Of a stretch of 64,000 nucleotides of DNA, positions 5,893-41,594 are shown one piece after another (position 1 is the first letter of the stretch; every line of letters starts with the position of its first letter). Below the pieces are notes generated by a model. It searched no databases, was not told where the DNA came from, and saw only the letters and a program-made list of their open reading frames with translations. The translations under genes were made by a program, and so were the position numbers. The DNA comes from Rubrivivax sp. (GTDB lineage: Bacteria; Pseudomonadota; Gammaproteobacteria; Burkholderiales; Burkholderiaceae_C). The DNA lies in contig JASGHA010000004.1 of the NCBI GenBank assembly GCA_049841175.1, forward strand, positions 38,077 to 102,076. The letters are read 5' to 3'.

Positions 5893-6861
5893 CTACACCT
5901 CCTGGCGGACGGTGGCGGACACCAGCACCGGCAGCTCGCCGCCTTGCTGCAGCCCGAAATAGACGTCTTCCAGCGACGGCTCGCGCACGACGAGGTCGTC
6001 CAGCCCGGCGCCGGCCAGGCGCGCCAGCAGCGCCATCTTCTGCGGCCGCGGGCACTCCAGCAGCGCCCGCTCGCCGTCGCGGTTGACGAAACGCACGCCC
6101 GGGGGCAGCGAGCCTGCGAGCCCGGCGATGGCCGCCGCTACGCCGCTGATCTGCACCCGCAGCGGTTGCGCCGAACGTTCGCGCAGCGCCTGCACGCTGC
6201 CCTGGGCGCGCACGCGGCCCTGGGCCAGCAGCGCCAGCGCGTCCACACGCTTCTGCAGCTCGGCCAGGATGTGCGAGCTGACGACGATCGTCGTGCCGCG
6301 CGCGCGCAGCGCATCCAGCTCGGCATAGAACTCGCGCACCGCCAGCGGGTCCAGGCCGGTGGTCGGTTCGTCCAGCAGCAGCAGCTTCGGCTCCCCGAGC
6401 AGCGCCTGGGCGAAACCGAGCCGCTGGCGCATGCCCTTGGAGTAACTGCGCACCGGGCGCGAGGCCGCGGCGCCCAGGCCCACGCGTTCCAGCAGCGGCG
6501 CGCATTCGGCCGCCGGTGCGCCCTTCAGCCGGGCGAACAGCCGCATCGTCTCGACGCCGCTCAGGTTGTCCCAGAGCACCAGGTTCTCGGGCAGGTAGCC
6601 GATGCTGCGCCGCACCTCGCGGAACCGGCGGCCGCCGACGTCGACGCCGCCCACCGTCACGCGGCCGGCGCTGGGTTGGATCAGGCCGAGCAGCAGCTTG
6701 AACAAGGTGCTCTTGCCGGCGCCGTTGTGGCCGACGAGCGCGAACAGCGTGCCCGCCGGCACGGCGAGCTCGATGCCGTCGAGCGCCTGCACCGTCTGGC
6801 TGCGGCCGCGGTAGCACTTGCCGACGCCGTGCAGCGCCAGCGCTTCAGCGTGTGCGTTCAA
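5893..6861 (-). CDS. nosF: NosF ABC transporter ATP-binding protein
   Basis: Walker A GHNGAGKST, signature YSKGMRQR, Walker B LLLLDEPT; lies between nosD and nosY. Confidence 0.92.
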   Translation of the reverse strand: MNAHAEALALHGVGKCYRGRSQTVQALDGIELAVPAGTLFALVGHNGAGKSTLFKLLLGLIQPSAGRVTVGGVDVGGRRFREVRRSIGYLPENLVLWDNLSGVETMRLFARLKGAPAAECAPLLERVGLGAAASRPVRSYSKGMRQRLGFAQALLGEPKLLLLDEPTTGLDPLAVREFYAELDALRARGTTIVVSSHILAELQKRVDALALLAQGRVRAQGSVQALRERSAQPLRVQISGVAAAIAGLAGSLPPGVRFVNRDGERALLECPRPQKMALLARLAGAGLDDLVVREPSLEDVYFGLQQGGELPVLVSATVRQEV

Positions 6862-8095
6862 TCCATTCGCTCCCGTTAGTGTGGCCCGGCGTCATCGCCG
6901 GGCGGTCGTCGACGACGCTGGGCACACGCAGCACCGGAAACTGCTGCGCCAAGAGGCGCAGCGCCTGCACCGCCGGGCTGCCCATCAGCAGGCGCAGCGC
7001 CGGGTGGCGGTTCTGCAGCCGGTCGACGACGTCGTTGGCCTCGTAGGGCACGTCGCCGACGCCGTCGCCGTCGCGGTCCCAGCCGAGGTAGTTGCTGAAG
7101 AAGTTGCCGCCGTTCCAGTGCTCGTCGCGGCCGCCGACGTAGCGCACCTGCTCGCGGTTGGCGATGAAGTCGTTGTGCTCGACGGTGTTGCGTGTCGAGC
7201 CGGCGGCCAGGTGCACGCCGACGGCGTTGCCGACGATCAGGTTGCGGCGCAGCGTCGCGTACTCGACGTCGTAGATGAAGAAGCCGCGCTCGTTGCCGGC
7301 GACGACGTTGTCCTCGACGACCGAGTCCTGCAGCGTGCGCAGCATGATGCCGTGGTCGCTGTTGCCCCAGGTGCGGTTGCGGCGCACCACCTGGTCGCGC
7401 ACCTCCATCAGCGCCAGCCCGCCGCGGTTGGCCCAGCTGTCGTTGTCCTCCCACAGGTTGCGGTAGGAGTTCATGTAGTGCGTGCCGTAGCGGCTGTGGT
7501 GCAGCCGGTTGCCGCGGAACACGGCGTCGTGCGAGACGTCGACGTACAGCGCGTCTCGCACGAAGCTGATCTGGTTGCCGACGATCTGCGCGCGCAGCGT
7601 GTTGTAGAGCTGCACGCCGTTGCCGCGCTGCGCCGAGTTCAGGTCGCGCAGGCCGGTGATGACGTTGTCCTCGACGCGCACGTTGTTGGCCTTCTCGATC
7701 CACAGCCCGAAGAGGTTGTAGGTCAGGTCGCAGCGGCGGATGACGGCGCGGTGCGCTCCCGGCTGCACGTAGATGCCGGCCTGCTGGTCGACGAGGCTGT
7801 GGCCCGAGTCGCGCACGATCAGGCCCTCGATCGTGACGTCGGTGGCGCGGATGCGGATGACGTCGCCGCGCTGGCCGCCGGAGATCGTCGGCCGGTCGAC
7901 GCCGCGCAGCGTCAGCGGCTTGTCGATGACGAGCTGGGTGTCGTAGCGCCCGCGCTCGATCTCGACGACGTCGCCGGCCGCGGCGCGCGCCACCGTGCCG
8001 GCCAGGTCGCCGCCCGGCGCCACGCGCCAGGTCGCGGCCCAGGCCGGCGCCGTGACCAGCGCCACGGTGCAGGCGAGCGCGCGAAGGTGTTTCAT
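6845..8095 (-). CDS. nosD: NosD periplasmic maturation protein (beta-helix)
   Basis: ATG at 8095 overlaps the nosR stop; RGNGVQLYN, RYGTHYM, GNFFSNYLGWDRDGDGVGDVPY. Confidence 0.93.
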   Translation of the reverse strand: MKHLRALACTVALVTAPAWAATWRVAPGGDLAGTVARAAAGDVVEIERGRYDTQLVIDKPLTLRGVDRPTISGGQRGDVIRIRATDVTIEGLIVRDSGHSLVDQQAGIYVQPGAHRAVIRRCDLTYNLFGLWIEKANNVRVEDNVITGLRDLNSAQRGNGVQLYNTLRAQIVGNQISFVRDALYVDVSHDAVFRGNRLHHSRYGTHYMNSYRNLWEDNDSWANRGGLALMEVRDQVVRRNRTWGNSDHGIMLRTLQDSVVEDNVVAGNERGFFIYDVEYATLRRNLIVGNAVGVHLAAGSTRNTVEHNDFIANREQVRYVGGRDEHWNGGNFFSNYLGWDRDGDGVGDVPYEANDVVDRLQNRHPALRLLMGSPAVQALRLLAQQFPVLRVPSVVDDRPAMTPGHTNGSEWIERTR

Positions 8096-34800: not shown

Positions 34801-35995
34801 GTGCTCAAGGAGATCGCGGTCGCCGACCTGCGGGTCGGCATGTTCGTGCACAAGATCTGCGGCTCGTGGATCGACCACCCGTTCTGGCGCACGCGCTTCG
34901 CGCTGCGCGAGGCGCAGGACGTGGACAAGCTGCGCGCCAGCGGCGTCGAGCGCCTGATCATCGACCTGGAACGCGGTGTCGACGTGCTGCCGGCGCTGGT
35001 GCCGGTCGACGAGCCGCTGCCCGACGCGACCCCCGAGCCGGCGCCGCCGCCGGAGCCGCCGCGTGTCGGCCGCGACTACGTGCAGGCCGCGGCGCTGTGC
35101 CGGCGCAGCCTGGCGCCGCTGCGTTCGCTGCACGACAGCGTGCGCCTGGGCCGCGCCGTCGCCACCGAGGCCTGCCGAGCACCTGGTCGACGAGATCGTC
35201 GACTCGGTCGAGTACGAGCCGACGCTGCTCGTCGCCGTCGCCCGGCTGAAGGCCGCCGACGAGTACCTGTACCTGCACGCGCTGGCGGTGTCGGCGCTGA
35301 TGGTCGCGCTGGGCCGCCAGATGGGGCTGCAGACACCTCAGCTGCGCGAAGCCGCGCTCGCCGGGCTGCTGCTGGACATCGGCAAGGCGCGGCTGCCGTC
35401 GGAGCTGCTGACGCGCCCGGCGCGGCTGCAAGGCGACGAACTGGCGCTGATGCGCCGCCACGCCGAGATCGGCCACGCGCTGCTGTCGCGCCTGGACGGC
35501 GTGCCGCGCAGCGTGCTGGACGCCGTGCGCCACCACCACGAGCGCCTGGACGGCAGCGGCTACCCCGACAAGTTGCGCGCCGAGGCCATTCCCGCTTTCG
35601 CGCGCATGGCCGCGGTCTGCGACGCCTACGACGCCGTGACCTCGCGCCGGCCCTATCGCGCGCCCTGGGACCCGGGGCTGGCGATGCGCCACCTGGCGCA
35701 GTCGCCGCGCGAGTTCGACGCCGTCATCGTGCAGCACTTCGTCAAGGCGGTCGGCATCTATCCGACCGGCACGCTGCTGCGGCTGAAGTCCGAGCGCCTG
35801 GCGGTCGTCGTCGGCCGCGGGGCGTCGCTGCTGACGCCGCGTGTGCGGGTCTTCTATTCGATCGACGAACGCCATGCGATCGAGCCCTTCGATCTCGACC
35901 TGTCCGACCCGCGCTGCGAGGACGCCGTCGCCGGCATCGAGCCGCCGGAGGCCTGGCGCTTCCCGGGGCTGGAGCAGCTCTGGCTGCGTGGGTGA
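34801..35995 (+). pseudogene. DUF3391/HD-GYP c-di-GMP phosphodiesterase with one apparent +1 frameshift near 35175
   Basis: VLKEIAVADLRVGMFV...WIDHPFW, then a shifted frame with HHERLDGSGYP and VCDAYDAVTSRRPY. The first HD dyad reads LLDIGK rather than LHDIGK. Confidence 0.75.
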
Positions 35996-36101
35996 TCGGC
36001 GTTTGGCGGGCAGGCCGCTCTAGCGCTGCTGCTCGCGGACGGGCTCTGACTTGCTTCGTTCGTGAACTTTGGCTGTGAGGGAAGGCCGGCGTGCGGGGGC
36101 C

Positions 36102-36210
36102 GCAGCGAGCCACGGTCGCCGGGTGGCCGGTTCCGTTCATGTCCCCCGGCCCGGCAAGCCGGGCCTCCTCCTAATACTTCACTCCACCGGCCACCCGGCG
36201 CCCGCGGCAG
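36102..36210 (-). ncRNA. Stem-loop-hairpin-loop-stem RNA element, IS110 bridge/seek-RNA-like, copy L
   Basis: Outer stem 36109-36131/36186-36208 encloses GGAGTGAAGTATTAGGAGGA-[hairpin]-GGGGGACATGAACG; the loops are identical to the copy at 40181-40279. Confidence 0.5.
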
Positions 36211-36440
36211 GGCGGTGCTGGGGCTGTTCGCTCGGGGGTGGTGGGCCTCCCCCCGAGGACGGGCGGTGGGCTTGGCGGCCATGATCGGGCGGCTCAGAAT
36301 CGTGCGCGACCGACGCCGTTTTCGGCGTCTTTTTTACGCCTGGGGAGGATCCTCGCGACGGAAATCTCAAGCGCGACAAAGGCTTGAGTTGTCGTCCAGG
36401 GTGTCTGTTACGCGAGCGTTGGATTTTTATGCGGCGTCTG

Positions 36441-36466
36441 GTTGTTGCATATAACAATAGTTAGTC
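36441..36466 (+). other. attI-like recombination site
   Basis: gttgttgcatATAACaataGTTAGTC: inverted AAC/GTT simple site directly before the first cassette. Confidence 0.65.
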
Positions 36467-36482
36467 ACCTTTTGGAGACTCT

Positions 36483-37973
36483 GTGGACTTTCTGCAGCTA
36501 GAAGAGAAACTAGCCAGCTATGGGTCTGGCGGATACTACTTAATCGAGTCCTTCCTGATAAAGCTTTTACAAGCGGAGGCAAAGTTCAGGAAGCAGGACT
36601 TCGTACACAGTTCAGGCAGCAACATCGCCACCTTCGATGCATTTGCGCCCATCGGCTTCGGCGACATCCCTGGTTCAGTATCAATTGAAATTGTTAGAAC
36701 TTTAAGTCCAAACAGGGTTATTAAAGAAGCGAGTCGCTACGCAAGTGTGGCGAAGGAGGCTAATGCAACGCTTCTAATAATATCCCTCACGAAGTTCAGC
36801 GAAGGCATACTTCCATTCATTGCGAAACATTTTCCAGTGGCCGCGAAGGTTCATCTTTGGGGCCCAAGTGAGATCCAACTCCTAATTGATCGCCATACAG
36901 AAACGGCAGAAAAGCTGGCGGAAAACCTATTTTCCAATCGCTTTAAAGTTGCACTGGAAAGCAATGCTGATGACTGGCAAAAGCAACGAGAAGGCGTTGT
37001 AAACGCCGTTCGAGATCAATACAGATCTGGTCGTTTTTCAATGTTTCTTGGCGCTGGCGTATCGAGTAGCGCTGGATTGCCAGATTGGGACACGCTCCTA
37101 AATTCCTTATTTGTGTCAATGCTCACTGATGGAGCGCCAAATGCGAAGCTTGCCGACGCCGAGCAAATCTCCAGCATTGTCAAACGGCTTAGGCAGATTG
37201 ATGGGCCGTCGGCTTTAATGTTGGCAAGATACATTCGCAAAGGAATTACAACCGACTCCCCCGCCGAGCAGGGAAAATTCATTGGTGCAGTGACAACCCA
37301 GCTTTATGGGCTCCGCAATAAAAAGCACTCAATAAGCTCAAGTCTAATCAAATCAATTGCAAGCCTTTGCGCTCCAAGCCGCACAGGTGCCAAAGTTCGT
37401 TCGGTGCTGACCTACAACTTTGATGATTTGCTTGAGCGAGAGATAAAAGCGCGAGGGCTATCTTATCGAAGCATATTTGAAGAGCTCGACCTGCCTTCGC
37501 CGGAAGAGTTGCCAATATATCATGTTCACGGCTTCCTACCAGAAGATCGATCAGCGTATGAGAACATAAACAAGGCAACACTGGTCTTCTCTGAAGAGGG
37601 GTATCACCATATTTACCGTGAAGCCTACCACTGGTCGAATTTGATTCAACTTAATAGCCTCAAAGAAACGTCATGCCTAATGGTCGGATTGTCTTTAACC
37701 GACCCAAACTTGCGCAGACTTCTAGAAATATCTGCAAAATCAATTGACAAGCCTAAGCACTTCGCTTTCATGAAGCGAATTACATATGATAGCTTTTCCA
37801 CTGAGGGGGAAAAATCCGTCGTGCGCGCCCCAGTTGGAATAGTAAGACGCTTCCTAGATAGGCACCATAAGCTTAATGAGGAGGTTCTTAGAGAGTTGGG
37901 TGTCAACATAATTTGGTACGAAAATTATGATGAAATTCCATCCATTCTCCATCAAATTGGGAAAGGTGTCTAA
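36483..37973 (+). CDS. SIR2-family protein with an N-terminal restriction-endonuclease-like domain (cassette 1)
   Basis: FLGAGVSSSAGLPDW, LTYNFDDLLE, IYHVHG, LVFSEEGY, LMVGLSLTDPNLRRLL; the stop codon overlaps the attC R'' box. Confidence 0.85.
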   Translation: MDFLQLEEKLASYGSGGYYLIESFLIKLLQAEAKFRKQDFVHSSGSNIATFDAFAPIGFGDIPGSVSIEIVRTLSPNRVIKEASRYASVAKEANATLLIISLTKFSEGILPFIAKHFPVAAKVHLWGPSEIQLLIDRHTETAEKLAENLFSNRFKVALESNADDWQKQREGVVNAVRDQYRSGRFSMFLGAGVSSSAGLPDWDTLLNSLFVSMLTDGAPNAKLADAEQISSIVKRLRQIDGPSALMLARYIRKGITTDSPAEQGKFIGAVTTQLYGLRNKKHSISSSLIKSIASLCAPSRTGAKVRSVLTYNFDDLLEREIKARGLSYRSIFEELDLPSPEELPIYHVHGFLPEDRSAYENINKATLVFSEEGYHHIYREAYHWSNLIQLNSLKETSCLMVGLSLTDPNLRRLLEISAKSIDKPKHFAFMKRITYDSFSTEGEKSVVRAPVGIVRRFLDRHHKLNEEVLRELGVNIIWYENYDEIPSILHQIGKGV

Positions 37974-38084
37974 CTGACGGTTCAACGCGGACGCCAAAAC
38001 GGGCCATCGCTTCGCGATTTTGCTGGCCCGTTTTGGTGCTCTACGCGCCTCGCGCTCCGGCGTCGGTTAACCTGGGCGTTATGC
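37968..38084 (+). other. attC site 1
   Basis: R'' GTCTAAC (37968), L'' GGTTCAAC, central inverted repeat CCAAAACGGGCCA/TGGCCCGTTTTGG, L' GGTTAACC, R' GTTATGC (38078). Confidence 0.9.
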
Positions 38085-38103
38085 GCATCGCATAAGGAAG
38101 AAC

Positions 38104-38772
38104 ATGATCGAAGATGATGATTTCGAACTGAATCGGATCATGGATGAGCTTGAGGAAGGCTCCAAGGAAATTAATGAGATTAATTCGGAATTGGAGAATT
38201 ATTTCGAATGGCTTGAGGTGCTCACTGGCCTGAATAAAATTTCAAAAAAATTTGTATCGAACATGGATTCGCTATCATCCATCCATGGATCAATTTCAGA
38301 TACCATTGACAATAGCTTTCTAATAGGAACGCTATGGTCGGGAGTTATATCTTCTTACGAAGGATTTGTGCATGACCTTTTTGATTTATTGCTTTCAAAT
38401 AGAATTCATGCGCAAGCGGCCGTAGAAGGAGCCCCAAGCCTAGATAAGGGGCTTTTGGATCAAATAAAGCTAAATAAAAACAAATATATATCCGCTGAAG
38501 ACCTCCGGTTCTTGTTCAGGAAAGCTACGCTGAGCAACCCTAACAAAGGTGCTGCACTGGCAAACCATCTATTCAAAACAAATATTCCAGAGATCGAAGA
38601 CAAAGAAATGCTAAGTGCTTTGAAAATAAGGAATGCCTACACGCACAATAATGGTGGAGTCGAAGTTTCCCTGTCATCTTTAGAGCTATTTCACGACAAA
38701 ATCGACACCGCGGTTGGTGGTTATATTAAAGAAATCTTAAATCAGGCAAATAGCCGCATATCCAAAGATTGA
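38104..38772 (+). CDS. HEPN-domain putative RNase (cassette 2)
   Basis: VISSYEGFVHDL plus an Rx4H motif RNAYTH(NNG); acidic N-terminus. Confidence 0.7.
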   Translation: MIEDDDFELNRIMDELEEGSKEINEINSELENYFEWLEVLTGLNKISKKFVSNMDSLSSIHGSISDTIDNSFLIGTLWSGVISSYEGFVHDLFDLLLSNRIHAQAAVEGAPSLDKGLLDQIKLNKNKYISAEDLRFLFRKATLSNPNKGAALANHLFKTNIPEIEDKEMLSALKIRNAYTHNNGGVEVSLSSLELFHDKIDTAVGGYIKEILNQANSRISKD

Positions 38773-38777
38773 GAGGG

Positions 38778-38864
38778 GCATAACATGGCGCTCAGCCGCG
38801 CTCCCTTCGGTCGCTGGACGCTGCGCGATAAAGCCGGGCAGCGCCGGTTAGATCTACATTAGGC
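38778..38864 (+). other. attC site 2 (R' crossover base altered)
   Basis: R'' GCATAAC is the exact complement of the cassette-start GTTATGC; ...GCTGCGCGATAAAGCCGGGCAGCGCCGGTTAGATCTAC; R' reads ATTAGGC instead of GTTAGGC. Confidence 0.88.
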
Positions 38865-38880
38865 CTCGCTATCAGTCTCC

Positions 38881-39681
38881 GTGGCTCACCATCCGCTCGT
38901 GCGCATACACCCGAACCGATGCAAGCAAGCCAAAGCGCTTCCTGCAACGCCGCGAACTTGGGCGGAACGTCATGCTCCCCTCGCCCAGGTTATCGCGGCG
39001 TACAGCACTCTTGCAGCGGTGGTTGTCGCAGGGCTCGGCTTTTGGTTCACGGTCATACCCCTTTACCAGAAGGCCGCGGTTGACGAGCAACTTGCGAAAC
39101 GTGAAGCTGAACTCAAGCAGTTGGATTCAGAACTCGCACGCGCAAGACGGGAGGCATACGAACTAGTGCGGTCCGGTCTGCTGGAACAGACTGCGATTCG
39201 TGCGTCGTTCGACTGCGCAGGTTTCTTTAGGGACGGTGGGGCAACGGCCATAGATCGCCTGTCTGAACCATTGGCGTCGTGCATTTTGAAGGCCAGCGGA
39301 TCCATCGTTGAAGCAAAGCGATTGACCGAGGGGGACAGCCAAACGCTCATGCGGGAGAGCGAGCGGTTCGTAGCGGAGTGGGAGCAACGACGCCTTGCGA
39401 CACTCGAGAAGGTCAAGGAGATTCCCAGTCGGGCATCCATCGATTCGACAATCCTTGCCGAGGAGGGGCCCCACTCCAAGCGGGTGACAGACTACTTGAC
39501 GAAGATCGAGCCCTATCTGAGCGAAGCGGATCGGCAAAGGCAAAGGCAACGTCAGTTCGAGCGCCGAGTTCGTCAAACTCAGTACCAGATGGCGTTGAAC
39601 TTCGGCACTGAACTGAGCACAGCCATGCTGAAGTTCTATCGTGCAGGCATTTGGCCCGCGGTCAAGCTCACAGCGCAGTAG
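38881..39681 (+). CDS. Hypothetical membrane-anchored coiled-coil protein (cassette 3)
   Basis: Single TM (TLAAVVVAGLGFWFTVIPLY) followed by heptad-like QLAKREAELKQLDSELARARRE; start uncertain. Confidence 0.65.
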   Translation: MAHHPLVRIHPNRCKQAKALPATPRTWAERHAPLAQVIAAYSTLAAVVVAGLGFWFTVIPLYQKAAVDEQLAKREAELKQLDSELARARREAYELVRSGLLEQTAIRASFDCAGFFRDGGATAIDRLSEPLASCILKASGSIVEAKRLTEGDSQTLMRESERFVAEWEQRRLATLEKVKEIPSRASIDSTILAEEGPHSKRVTDYLTKIEPYLSEADRQRQRQRQFERRVRQTQYQMALNFGTELSTAMLKFYRAGIWPAVKLTAQ

Positions 39682-39743
39682 CTACTCGGCGCCCACAAGG
39701 TGCGGCGAGGCCTTGTATCTTCCAAGAGACCGCAGTGAGCAGT

Positions 39744-40016
39744 GGTATCGCTCCTCGTAGTAGACTTGGCCTTGATCGGTGTACTCCTGGCCCTCGCTCA
39801 GCAGGCTGTAGATCAGCCGGGCGAGTTTGTGTGCGGCGGCCGTGACGGCTTTGGCCTTGTCCATGCGGGCGCACAAACGCCGGTAGTACGCGCCCAGCGC
39901 CGACTGGCTGGTGCGCAGCGCCTTGGCGGCGCGGTTGACCGTGGGACGGGTCTTGCCGCTCATGACCTTGCCGCCGGTGATCTTGGTGCCCGGGCACAGG
40001 CCCATCCAGGATGCGA
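39744..40016 (-). pseudogene. IS110-family transposase C-terminal remnant
   Basis: ASWMGLCPGTKITGGKVMSGKT...SALGAYYRRL...KAVTAAAHKLARLIYSLL...GQEY...YYEERY; N-terminal DEDD domain absent. Confidence 0.85.
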
Positions 40017-40180
40017 CTTCCCCTTCCCAGCGTCGGATTGCTGACTTGCACCTTCAATCCTGACGTCTCGACGTCGTGCTGGGTTGTGGGAAGTCCCTTC
40101 GTATTCCCTCCACCGACCACCCGACGCCCGCGGCAGCCAACGACAGTTGTGTGCCAGCGGTGTGCTACCAAAGCCTCGGA

Positions 40181-40279
40181 GCCGGACGTCGGGGCGTGTC
40201 CCGGAGTGAAGTATTAGGAGGAGGGCGGGCGCAGCCCGCCCGGGGGACATGAACGCAGGGACACGCCCCGGCGGCCGGC
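40181..40279 (+). ncRNA. Stem-loop-hairpin-loop-stem RNA element, IS110 bridge/seek-RNA-like, copy R
   Basis: Outer stem 40181-40202/40258-40279; same two loops as copy L, with different but paired stems. Confidence 0.5.
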
Positions 40280-40408
40280 TCTTGCGCCGTTGCTAGCGGA
40301 CGTGATCCAACGAGTTCCTTTGTGGGCTTGAGAGGCGTGAGACGGCCGGAGTGCTTCAGCAGCGGCGAGCCACGGCCGCCGGGCGGCAGCAGACGCCGCA
40401 GGGTTTAA

Positions 40409-41594
40409 GGAAGGTCTGCACAACACGCCGAGCGACCGGATCGGCGCGACATCGTTAGCGACGGCTTTGTGCAGGAGCGCATTGCGCCCCCGAGCCAGCG
40501 TTGTAGGACGGAGAAACGAAGCAAATGGCGCCCAGCGGGGGACGTTTGGCGCCCACCGGGCGCACTCATCCCCGGGCTCCCATGAGATGCCTTCGCGCCA
40601 TCCACAGGTTCGCCAGCGCGAACAGCGTCTGGATCTGCGCCGTGTTCTTGGCCAGCCCCCGGTACCGCACCTTGGTGAAGCCGAACTGCCGCTTCAGCAC
40701 GCGAAACGGGTGCTCCACCTTGGCCCGCACGCTGGCCTTGAGTTGTTCGATTCGCTCGGTGATCGCATCCTGGCGATCCCGCGCGTCGAGCAGCCGCCGC
40801 AGCCCCGGGCGCAAGGCCACGTGCCAGGTCGGCCCTCGCGCCTCGGGCCTCTTGTGCACGCCCTGGTAGCCGGCGTCGCCGAAGGCGTTGCGTTCCTCGC
40901 CATGCAGCAGTTGTCCGGCCACGTTCAGGTCGTTGACGTTCGCCGGCGTGGCCACCACCGTGTGCACCAGCCCCGAGGCCGCGTCCACCCCGATGTGCGC
41001 CTTCATCCCGAAGTACCAGTTGTTGCCCTTGCGGGTCTGCTTCATCTCCGGATCGCGCTCGCCTTCGGCGTTCTTCGTCGAGCTGGGCGCCGCGATCAGC
41101 GTCGCGTCCACCACCGTGCCGGTGCGCAGCATCAGGCCCTTGTGCTGCAGCAGATCGGCCACCAGGCGCAGCATGTCGGCCGCCAGTTCGTGGCGCTCCA
41201 GCAGGTGGCGAAACCGCAGGATCGTCGTCTCGTCGGGCAACCTCTGCGTCGCACCATCGAGCCGAGCGAACTCCCGGTACAGCGGCACGTCGTGCAGCGC
41301 CTCTTCCATCGCCGGGTCGCTCAGCCCGAACCATTGCTGCAGGTAGTGGATGCGCAGCATCGTCTCCAGCGCAAACGGCGGCCGCCCGGTCCTGGCTCGC
41401 GGATAGTGCGGCTGCACGATCTCCACCAGCGCCGCCCACGGCACCACGCGGTCCATCTCCTCGAGGAACTCGCGCTTGCGCGTCTTCTTCGTCGACAGGT
41501 TCAGGCCAAGTCCGAGCTGCTTCATGTCGGGCATCCTCGCCTGCCTACCTCGCACGGGCAAGCCGGCTTCGCGGGGGCGTTTTGCAGACCTTCC
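40409..41594 (-). mobile_element. IS5-family insertion sequence (IS5 subgroup), apparently intact
   Basis: Terminal inverted repeats GGAAGGTCTGCA(C/A)AA; TTAA target duplication at 40405-40408 and 41595-41598; 1186 bp. Confidence 0.95.
40566..41525 (-). CDS. IS5-family DDE transposase
   Basis: KTRKREFLEEM, LSDPAMEEAL, VDATLIAAPSS, YFGMKAHIGVD, GDAGYQG, RAKVEHPF. Confidence 0.95.
   Translation of the reverse strand: MKQLGLGLNLSTKKTRKREFLEEMDRVVPWAALVEIVQPHYPRARTGRPPFALETMLRIHYLQQWFGLSDPAMEEALHDVPLYREFARLDGATQRLPDETTILRFRHLLERHELAADMLRLVADLLQHKGLMLRTGTVVDATLIAAPSSTKNAEGERDPEMKQTRKGNNWYFGMKAHIGVDAASGLVHTVVATPANVNDLNVAGQLLHGEERNAFGDAGYQGVHKRPEARGPTWHVALRPGLRRLLDARDRQDAITERIEQLKASVRAKVEHPFRVLKRQFGFTKVRYRGLAKNTAQIQTLFALANLWMARRHLMGARG

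Follow-up and report, generated by a model that had tools for sequence, protein, structure and literature searches.

Enzymes of the SIR2 fold that degrade nicotinamide adenine dinucleotide (NAD+), the SIR2 NADases, are a major class of effectors in bacterial immunity and, to our knowledge, every characterised SIR2 system has a different sensor. ThsA of type I Thoeris, a SIR2–SLOG NADase (PDB 8btp, 6lhx and 8wc0), has the SIR2 domain nearest by sequence and fold to the one described here, while DSR2, DSR1, KomC (Kongming), Sir2-HerA and SPARSA have in common with it the SIR2_2-type NADase fold and the logic of sensor-gated NAD+ depletion. Here we analyse a gene at 36483–37973 in a 64,000-nucleotide (nt) stretch of Rubrivivax sp. 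DNA (assembly GCA_049841175.1, contig JASGHA010000004.1; hereafter the window), which encodes a 496-amino-acid (aa) protein with an N-terminal Mrr-like PD-(D/E)xK domain and a C-terminal SIR2_2 domain, and which forms a single-gene integron cassette. We consider it probable that this mobile cassette encodes a stand-alone anti-phage abortive-infection protein, a SIR2 NADase gated by its own sensor.

Like ThsA, the window protein has the same catalytic Asn and His, and carries a sensor-type domain and a NADase on one polypeptide; unlike ThsA, it has no SLOG/STALD domain, its sensor-type domain is N-terminal with a PD-(D/E)xK fold, and nothing implies a signalling molecule. DSR1 and DSR2 likewise consist of one gene, but DSR proteins exceed 1000 aa and have C-terminal sensors. 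The N-terminal domain has the fold and motif order of Mrr/MspJI-type (type IV, modification-dependent) restriction endonucleases (Mrr_cat, PF04471), from which it differs in that Pfam’s own model misses it, the catalytic lysine is absent from the window protein, and the domain is not itself the effector but is joined to SIR2.

Membership of the known systems was rejected in each case. The protein ends with its SIR2 domain and has no SLOG/STALD domain (ThsA), and the array holds no TIR gene that could stand for the partner ThsB, nor is any neighbour conserved in 80 related loci. The NCBIfam equivalogs Dsr1 and Dsr2 gave 20.9 and 13.6 bits against a cut-off of 1400, for a protein of only 496 aa. 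The partners of Sir2-HerA, SPARSA and Kongming (HerA, short prokaryotic Argonaute and KomB) are neither in the cassette nor conserved in the 80 loci. Cyclic-oligonucleotide sensing, as by a NucC/Cdn1-like restriction-endonuclease fold, was considered for a weak Foldseek match to Cdn1 and dropped, there being no conserved cyclase partner. No PADLOC 2.0 model covers the whole protein, and the pairing of SIR2 with an Mrr-type domain is not a PADLOC system.

A Mucilaginibacter protein with SIR2 and restriction-nuclease domains, ‘a previously undescribed combination’, was flagged by ESM-DefenseFinder as predicted antiphage (10.1101/2025.01.08.631966). This is the same domain combination, given there in a one-sentence computational mention without motif analysis or cassette context; the family studied here includes members from Bacteroidota. 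Searching the literature for the pairing of SIR2 with Mrr_cat, and for SIR2 on integron cassettes, we found nothing beyond that mention.

The two domains of the fusion protein

The features of the gene are as follows.

36483–37973, + strand: whole open reading frame (ORF), an Mrr_cat-like and SIR2_2 fusion of 496 aa, with a GTG start and a TAA stop at 37971–37973
36483–36902, + strand: PD-(D/E)xK (Mrr_cat-like) domain, residues 1–140, from AlphaFold2 (AF2), Foldseek, hhalign and motif statistics
36546–48, 36636–38, 36687–89, 36693–95 and 36714–16, + strand: N-terminal key codons E22, D52, E69, V71 and R78, respectively
36903–37022, + strand: helical linker, residues 141–180, from AF2 secondary structure and conservation
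37023–37970, + strand: SIR2_2 NADase-type domain, residues 181–496, from Pfam, PADLOC, a PDB sequence match and Foldseek
SIR2 motif codons, + strand: GAGVS (residues 190–194), N312 (37416–18), D314, and H347/H349 (H349 at 37527–29)

The ORF lies exactly where the original prediction had placed it, and every motif quoted there is present: FDAF (residues 51–54), IEIVR (68–72), GAGVS (190–194), TYNFD (310–314), HVHG (347–350) and, at the end of the N-terminal part, VHLWGPSEIQLLID (123–136). GGAG is found 7 nt upstream of the GTG start.

The C-terminal part, which had been described as a SIR2_2-type domain, indeed matches Pfam SIR2_2 (PF13289) over residues 307–434 (E = 1.4e-17; 64.5 bits against a gathering cut-off of 24.5 bits). 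The top PADLOC model was ThsA1 (E = 6.5e-20), matched solely at positions 103–276 of 478, its SIR2 part; PADLOC scores for LmuA, Dsr1, Dsr2, PDC-S25 and PDC-S65 were weak. EcThsA (8wc0) was the closest solved relative by sequence (E = 1.5e-4), in an alignment that pairs TYNFD with TTNYD and YHVHG with YKMHG and so places N312 and H349 opposite the ThsA catalytic Asn and His. An AF2 model built from 48 homologues (predicted local distance difference test, pLDDT, 82; predicted template modelling score, pTM, 0.79), was matched by Foldseek in the PDB to BcThsA (E = 1.3e-11), KomC of Kongming, SeThsA, EcThsA and DSR2, such that the structural neighbours of the SIR2 domain were NAD+-hydrolysing defence effectors throughout. 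G190, G192, N312, D314, H347 and H349 are invariant in 153/153 family members; the SIR2 catalytic apparatus is therefore intact, and the domain is predicted to be a functional NAD+ hydrolase of the ThsA/KomC/DSR2 kind. W165 and R169, in the helical linker, are invariant.

Identification of the N-terminal domain required structure prediction and profile–profile comparison, because searches with sequence only had failed: Pfam models gave no match to residues 1–160 of the window protein or of any of 48 relatives, and a profile search of PDB sequences with the N-terminus returned noise only. The AF2 model of residues 1–162 (pLDDT 88.7, pTM 0.84) has the element order helix, helix, three strands, helix, strand, helix, strand, helix, into which the alpha-beta-beta-beta-alpha-beta core order of PD-(D/E)xK enzymes fits. 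Foldseek matched this model in the PDB to MspJI (E = 2.9e-4, TMq 0.58), then to EcoT38I, FokI, EcoO109I and N.BspD6I. Using an Mrr_cat profile assembled from 22 Mrr_cat segments of related genomes, hhalign gave a probability of 95.1% (E = 3.2e-8, 122 columns), with every motif in register: FE helix, D, (E/Q)xK strand and the closing ‘v.LIDG..L’ strand–helix.

E22 (helix 1), D52 and E69 (the E69-x-(K) strand) are conserved in 97%, 96% and 93%, respectively, of the 153 members. The D...(D/E/Q)xK triad is incomplete in the window protein, which has D52 and E69 but Val at position 71. Both parts of the original claim, a restriction-endonuclease-like fold resembling Mrr and the lack of its catalytic lysine, are thus upheld, the first by the Foldseek and hhalign matches and the second by this Val; fold, profile–profile similarity and domain context together support the description of the domain as Mrr-like and Lys-less.

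To see how widely the domain occurs, we used the N-terminal profile to search 1.84 billion representative proteins and obtained 371 matching clusters (50% identity), the best 150 of which were mostly of about 500 aa or were shorter fragments. Ten clusters of other lengths were scanned with Pfam; six carry SIR2_2, and the other four, all short, are without any family. The pairing with SIR2 thus appears to be fixed, as all six of the longer or mid-length clusters with a Pfam match have SIR2. Two relatives with intact ExK carry a further module in front, Mrr_N in one (P0263) and an N6 DNA methylase in the other (P0235), which links the shared domain to DNA. An Mrr-type PD-(D/E)xK nuclease is the most likely ancestor of the N-terminal domain, which has kept the acidic metal- or substrate-binding residues and, in the clade of the window protein, has lost the catalytic lysine.

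K71 is present in 28/153 family members. Most homologues below 50% identity have Lys at this position (IEIK, VEVK, IDVK), and with it the full E..D..ExK set, while almost all relatives at 50% identity or above carry V, T, I, A or S there. Parsimony on a tree of the SIR2 part only required 8 changes at position 71, fewer than in any of 200 label shuffles. The loss of K71 is specific to one clade. Position 78 needed 16 changes on the SIR2-domain tree. A basic residue is found at 78 (R78 in the window protein) in 109/125 members without K71, compared with 2/28 with it. This residue may represent a relocated lysine function, in which case ‘degenerate’ may mean ‘rewired’, or it may reflect just shared ancestry.

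In one 561-aa relative (P0150), both domains look inactivated (D52 to His, K71 to Arg, GAGVS to GEGVS and HVHG to HVNG), and a long insert separates the N-terminal and SIR2 domains.

Cassette structure and family distribution

The boundaries of the cassette are given by two sites.

36460–36466, + strand: R'-type core site GTTAGTC, the 5' cassette boundary, with the cassette proper from 36461; from the start of homology and the cores of relatives
37968–38072, + strand: attC of 105 bp, with R'' GTCTAAC at 37968–74 (holding the TAA stop) and R' GTTAACC at 38066–72

The ORF begins 22 nt after the GTT of the first site, and the next cassette begins at 38067. As a single strand, the attC folds with −33.3 kcal/mol (z = −5.1; 0/200 shuffles fold as well) and its ends pair, R''/L'' with L'/R'. 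Compared with the consensus cores (R'' RYYYAAC and R' GTTRRRY), its R' deviates at the sixth base. DNA similarity sets in at 36460/36461 for both the Rhodoferax saidenbachensis copy (L090; 75%) and the metagenome contigs (L091–L093; 80%), and it runs out at 37978–37995, just inside the attC. Close relatives have a GTTAGAC, GTTAGAT or GTTAGAG core equally far from the start codon and [GA]TCTAAC overlapping the stop, the inverse cores matching one another (GTTAGAC with GTCTAAC, GTTAGAT with ATCTAAC). The SIR2 gene is therefore a 1.6-kb single-gene integron cassette, with one ORF within its boundaries.

The ORF has a G+C content (GC) of 46.2%, and 46.7% at third codon positions, compared with 72% in both flanks and in the genome; it belongs to a low-GC island at ~36.3–39.7 kb of a window with ~71% GC overall. 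Neither 24 genomes from its genus nor 16 from its order contained the gene. With its low GC, its absence from these 40 related genomes and its precise boundaries, the cassette is a horizontally acquired, mobile, accessory element.

Two full-length integron integrases above the TIGR02249 cut-off are encoded in the genome, at C4:19949-20896 (−) and C8:724169-725113 (−). The nearest, on the same contig (C4), is 54 kb upstream of the cassette and, because no intI adjoins, we class the array as integrase-less (a cluster of attC sites lacking integrases, CALIN). Compact defence systems are known to be carried in integron cassettes (10.1101/2024.07.02.601686). The SIR2 cassette resembles these in being a compact candidate of one gene that has its own attC and shares a small array with unrelated cassettes; unlike them, it has no adjacent integrase. 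The text of that study mentions no SIR2, sirtuin or NAD-related cassette.

We found more than 1300 homologues of the 496-aa protein, so the observation goes far beyond chance, and the family spans Pseudomonadota, Bacteroidota, Bacillota and Actinomycetota. When all ORFs lying up to 3.5 kb from the SIR2 gene were clustered, no family was common to more than 7 of the 80 loci. Because no neighbour is conserved across these loci, the protein appears to act alone, and the cassette boundaries likewise hold one ORF, in agreement with the proposal that the cassette has no partner gene. The two ORFs that follow it were considered as partners and rejected: for the HEPN-like ORF (38104–38772), on the grounds of no tblastn match in the related loci (0/80), its own attC and differing GC; for the 266-aa ORF (38881–39681), again on 0/80 related loci by tblastn and differing GC.

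Relatives recur in contexts of defence type. The Vibrio fluvialis copy adjoins gpQ, the portal gene in a P2-like prophage. Rousset et al. described a cos-proximal hotspot between gpA and gpQ of P2-like prophages that holds anti-phage systems (PMC9122126), and the site of the V. fluvialis copy is this P2 cos-proximal defence hotspot. In Stutzerimonas stutzeri, the copy is beside an integrase and OLD-TOPRIM and UvrD genes resembling Gabija. About a tenth of the genes flanking 33 family members (n = 125) match PADLOC models very strongly, namely those for DRT UG10, a CBASS cyclase with NucC, Shedu SduA, GajA and a type IV restriction endonuclease, as well as Ppl, PDC-S54, PDC-S56 and mad3. Flank matches to DndA/SspA and RtcR were not counted, as they are probably nifS-type and nifA-type genes of a nif locus.

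The closest public copy with DNA fetched is on a metagenome contig (L091:6001-7491, in the group L091–L093), with 90% protein and 80% DNA identity; in this group an unannotated 244-aa ORF lies upstream of the copy, which is flanked by nifB and nifA. A 45%-identical homologue in the Firmicute Paenibacillus amylolyticus (L013) is located between near-identical direct repeats at 5930–5960 and 7590–7615, of sequence CGTGAATAC(A/G)(G/A)GAACGTTA(G/A)G, which suggests cassette-like mobility outside Proteobacteria.

Proposed function and alternatives

The domain is from a DNA-acting family, sometimes has a DNA-binding or DNA-modifying module in front, and has kept its acidic pocket while its lysine is gone; for these reasons we propose that the Mrr-like module no longer cuts DNA and would serve instead for sensing and assembly. 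It would bind some nucleic-acid sign of infection (for example, DNA that is foreign, modified or damaged), binding would drive oligomerisation and so switch on the SIR2 domain, and the resulting depletion of NAD+ would leave the infected cell no longer supporting phage growth. ThsA and KomC, the SIR2 effectors nearest in fold, have been captured as helical filaments, according to the titles of their PDB entries, and another SIR2 effector, Avs5, is reportedly activated by filamentation, as stated in the title of a paper. It is possible, though we hold this part with considerable doubt, that a dead Mrr-type restriction enzyme has been reused as a reader of DNA features, with DNA binding nucleating SIR2 oligomers and NAD+ depletion, and that the ExK relatives and those fused to Mrr_N or a methylase mark the path from cutter to sensor. 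If so, type IV restriction-style recognition would have been wired to abortive infection instead of DNA cleavage.

Several observations weigh against a sensor-gated defence protein. The acidic residues E22, D52 and E69 are still 93–97% conserved after loss of the lysine and, with a basic residue at 78, nuclease catalysis might be retained. The protein would then be a bifunctional effector in which the lysine function has moved (for example, to R78), cutting DNA as well as hydrolysing NAD+, with dual activity ancestral in the ExK orthologues; the near invariance of the acidic residues in the Lys-less clade, the distribution of basic residues at 78 and the full E..D..ExK set in most of the distant orthologues are all in its favour. 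We think this unlikely, as the anti-correlation of positions 71 and 78 comes largely from one clade and could be explained by shared ancestry (8 compared with 16 parsimony changes), and V, T, I, A or S is a non-conservative replacement at 71. Expression raises a separate doubt. A scan upstream of the gene for a sigma-70-like promoter found none, although such a consensus scan is crude for a betaproteobacterium of 72% GC, and with the nearest intI 54 kb off, expression in the present host is uncertain. The cassette could be a silent passenger in this genome, its ORF intact but unexpressed for want of both an integrase and the cassette promoter Pc, in an array flanked by insertion sequence (IS) debris; a terminator-like hairpin upstream (36312–36335) would fit this, as would the right edge of the array, where an IS110-family-like fragment is followed by an IS5-family transposase. 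Set against the full-length ORF, the complete set of SIR2 catalytic residues and the good ribosome-binding site, it seems quite improbable.

Parts of the family's distribution also weigh against the defence reading. Homologues are rare on plasmids (one full-length copy) and absent from phage records; the Rhodoferax copy stands alone, flanked by housekeeping genes (Rrf2/oxidoreductase on one side, Mnh antiporter on the other), and a metagenome copy lies between nifB and nifA, neither having a defence context. Copies of this kind could mean that the gene has no defence role, being instead a toxin or addiction cassette that stabilises the array, or a SIR2 deacylase or ADP-ribosyltransferase that acts on proteins or DNA in a DNA-transaction pathway. 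SIR2 folds also catalyse deacylation and ADP-ribosylation, and chromosomal integrons commonly carry toxin genes. Nevertheless, we regard this account as very unlikely: in sequence and fold the protein is nearest to defence NADases and not to CobB-type sirtuins, no antitoxin-like partner is conserved (80 loci), and defence genes recur beside relatives.

On the preferred reading, that of a stand-alone abortive-infection protein, a sensor fused to a SIR2 NADase is a known theme; the Mrr-type variant is a solid, testable defence candidate that will not surprise specialists. It represents a large family pairing SIR2 with an Mrr-type nuclease domain, a domain without a Pfam model. The family offers a natural separation-of-function series, of orthologues with ExK, without ExK, and with Mrr_N or a DNA methylase in front, through which one can test how a restriction-type domain comes to trigger NAD+ depletion. 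The cassette, of only 1.6 kb, could be cloned and tested directly; it would also bring a SIR2 example to the mounting evidence for integron cassettes as stores of compact defence genes.

Neighbouring cassettes and repeated elements

The three ORFs of the array (SIR2, HEPN-like and 266-aa) have 46%, 39% and 58% GC, respectively; because these contents differ and the HEPN-like ORF has its own attC-like site, we regard them as independent cassettes. The HEPN-like ORF (222 aa) carries an Rx4H motif (RNAYTH) and matches RiboL-PSP HEPN weakly (E = 3e-4, below cut-off). Its attC-like site, GCATAAC ... GTTAGAT, is at 38778–38853, and a copy with 87% identity is found at C7:109548-109625. The third ORF apparently encodes one hydrophobic helix and then a long, charged, coiled-coil-like region, and Pfam, PADLOC and NCBIfam gave no family for it. 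It has no complete attC after it; an IS fragment abuts its stop codon.

This fragment (39682–40005, − strand) encodes the C-terminal part of a transposase that looks to be of the IS110 family, with no Pfam match. Pieces of it with ~89% identity were found at seven other sites in the genome, including C4:23654-23947, 3 kb from the C4 intI. The C4 integrase is followed by 7 kb of lower-GC DNA (60–67%). The IS5-family transposase at the right edge of the array is at 40566–41561 (− strand).

Upstream, an element of ~370 bp (36085–36459) ends exactly at the cassette junction (...GCATATAAC), its right end having been mapped to ~36456–36459. The terminator-like hairpin at 36312–36335, which has a T-run, lies inside it, and Rfam returned nothing in this element or anywhere in 35500–41000. 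The genome holds five copies, with 77–90% identity, each followed by different DNA. Two of them (C8:87798-88155 and C12:206162-205805) have a gene for a 346-aa tyrosine recombinase ~150 bp beyond; three copies of this recombinase in the genome gave partial TIGR02249 matches. A short internal piece of the element (36130–36185) has more than 20 copies in the genome, and an inverted one at 40100–40279, at the right edge of the array. The stem of the hairpin in this piece varies by paired changes, GGCCCGGC..GCCGGGCC as against GGGCGGGC..GCCCGCCC.

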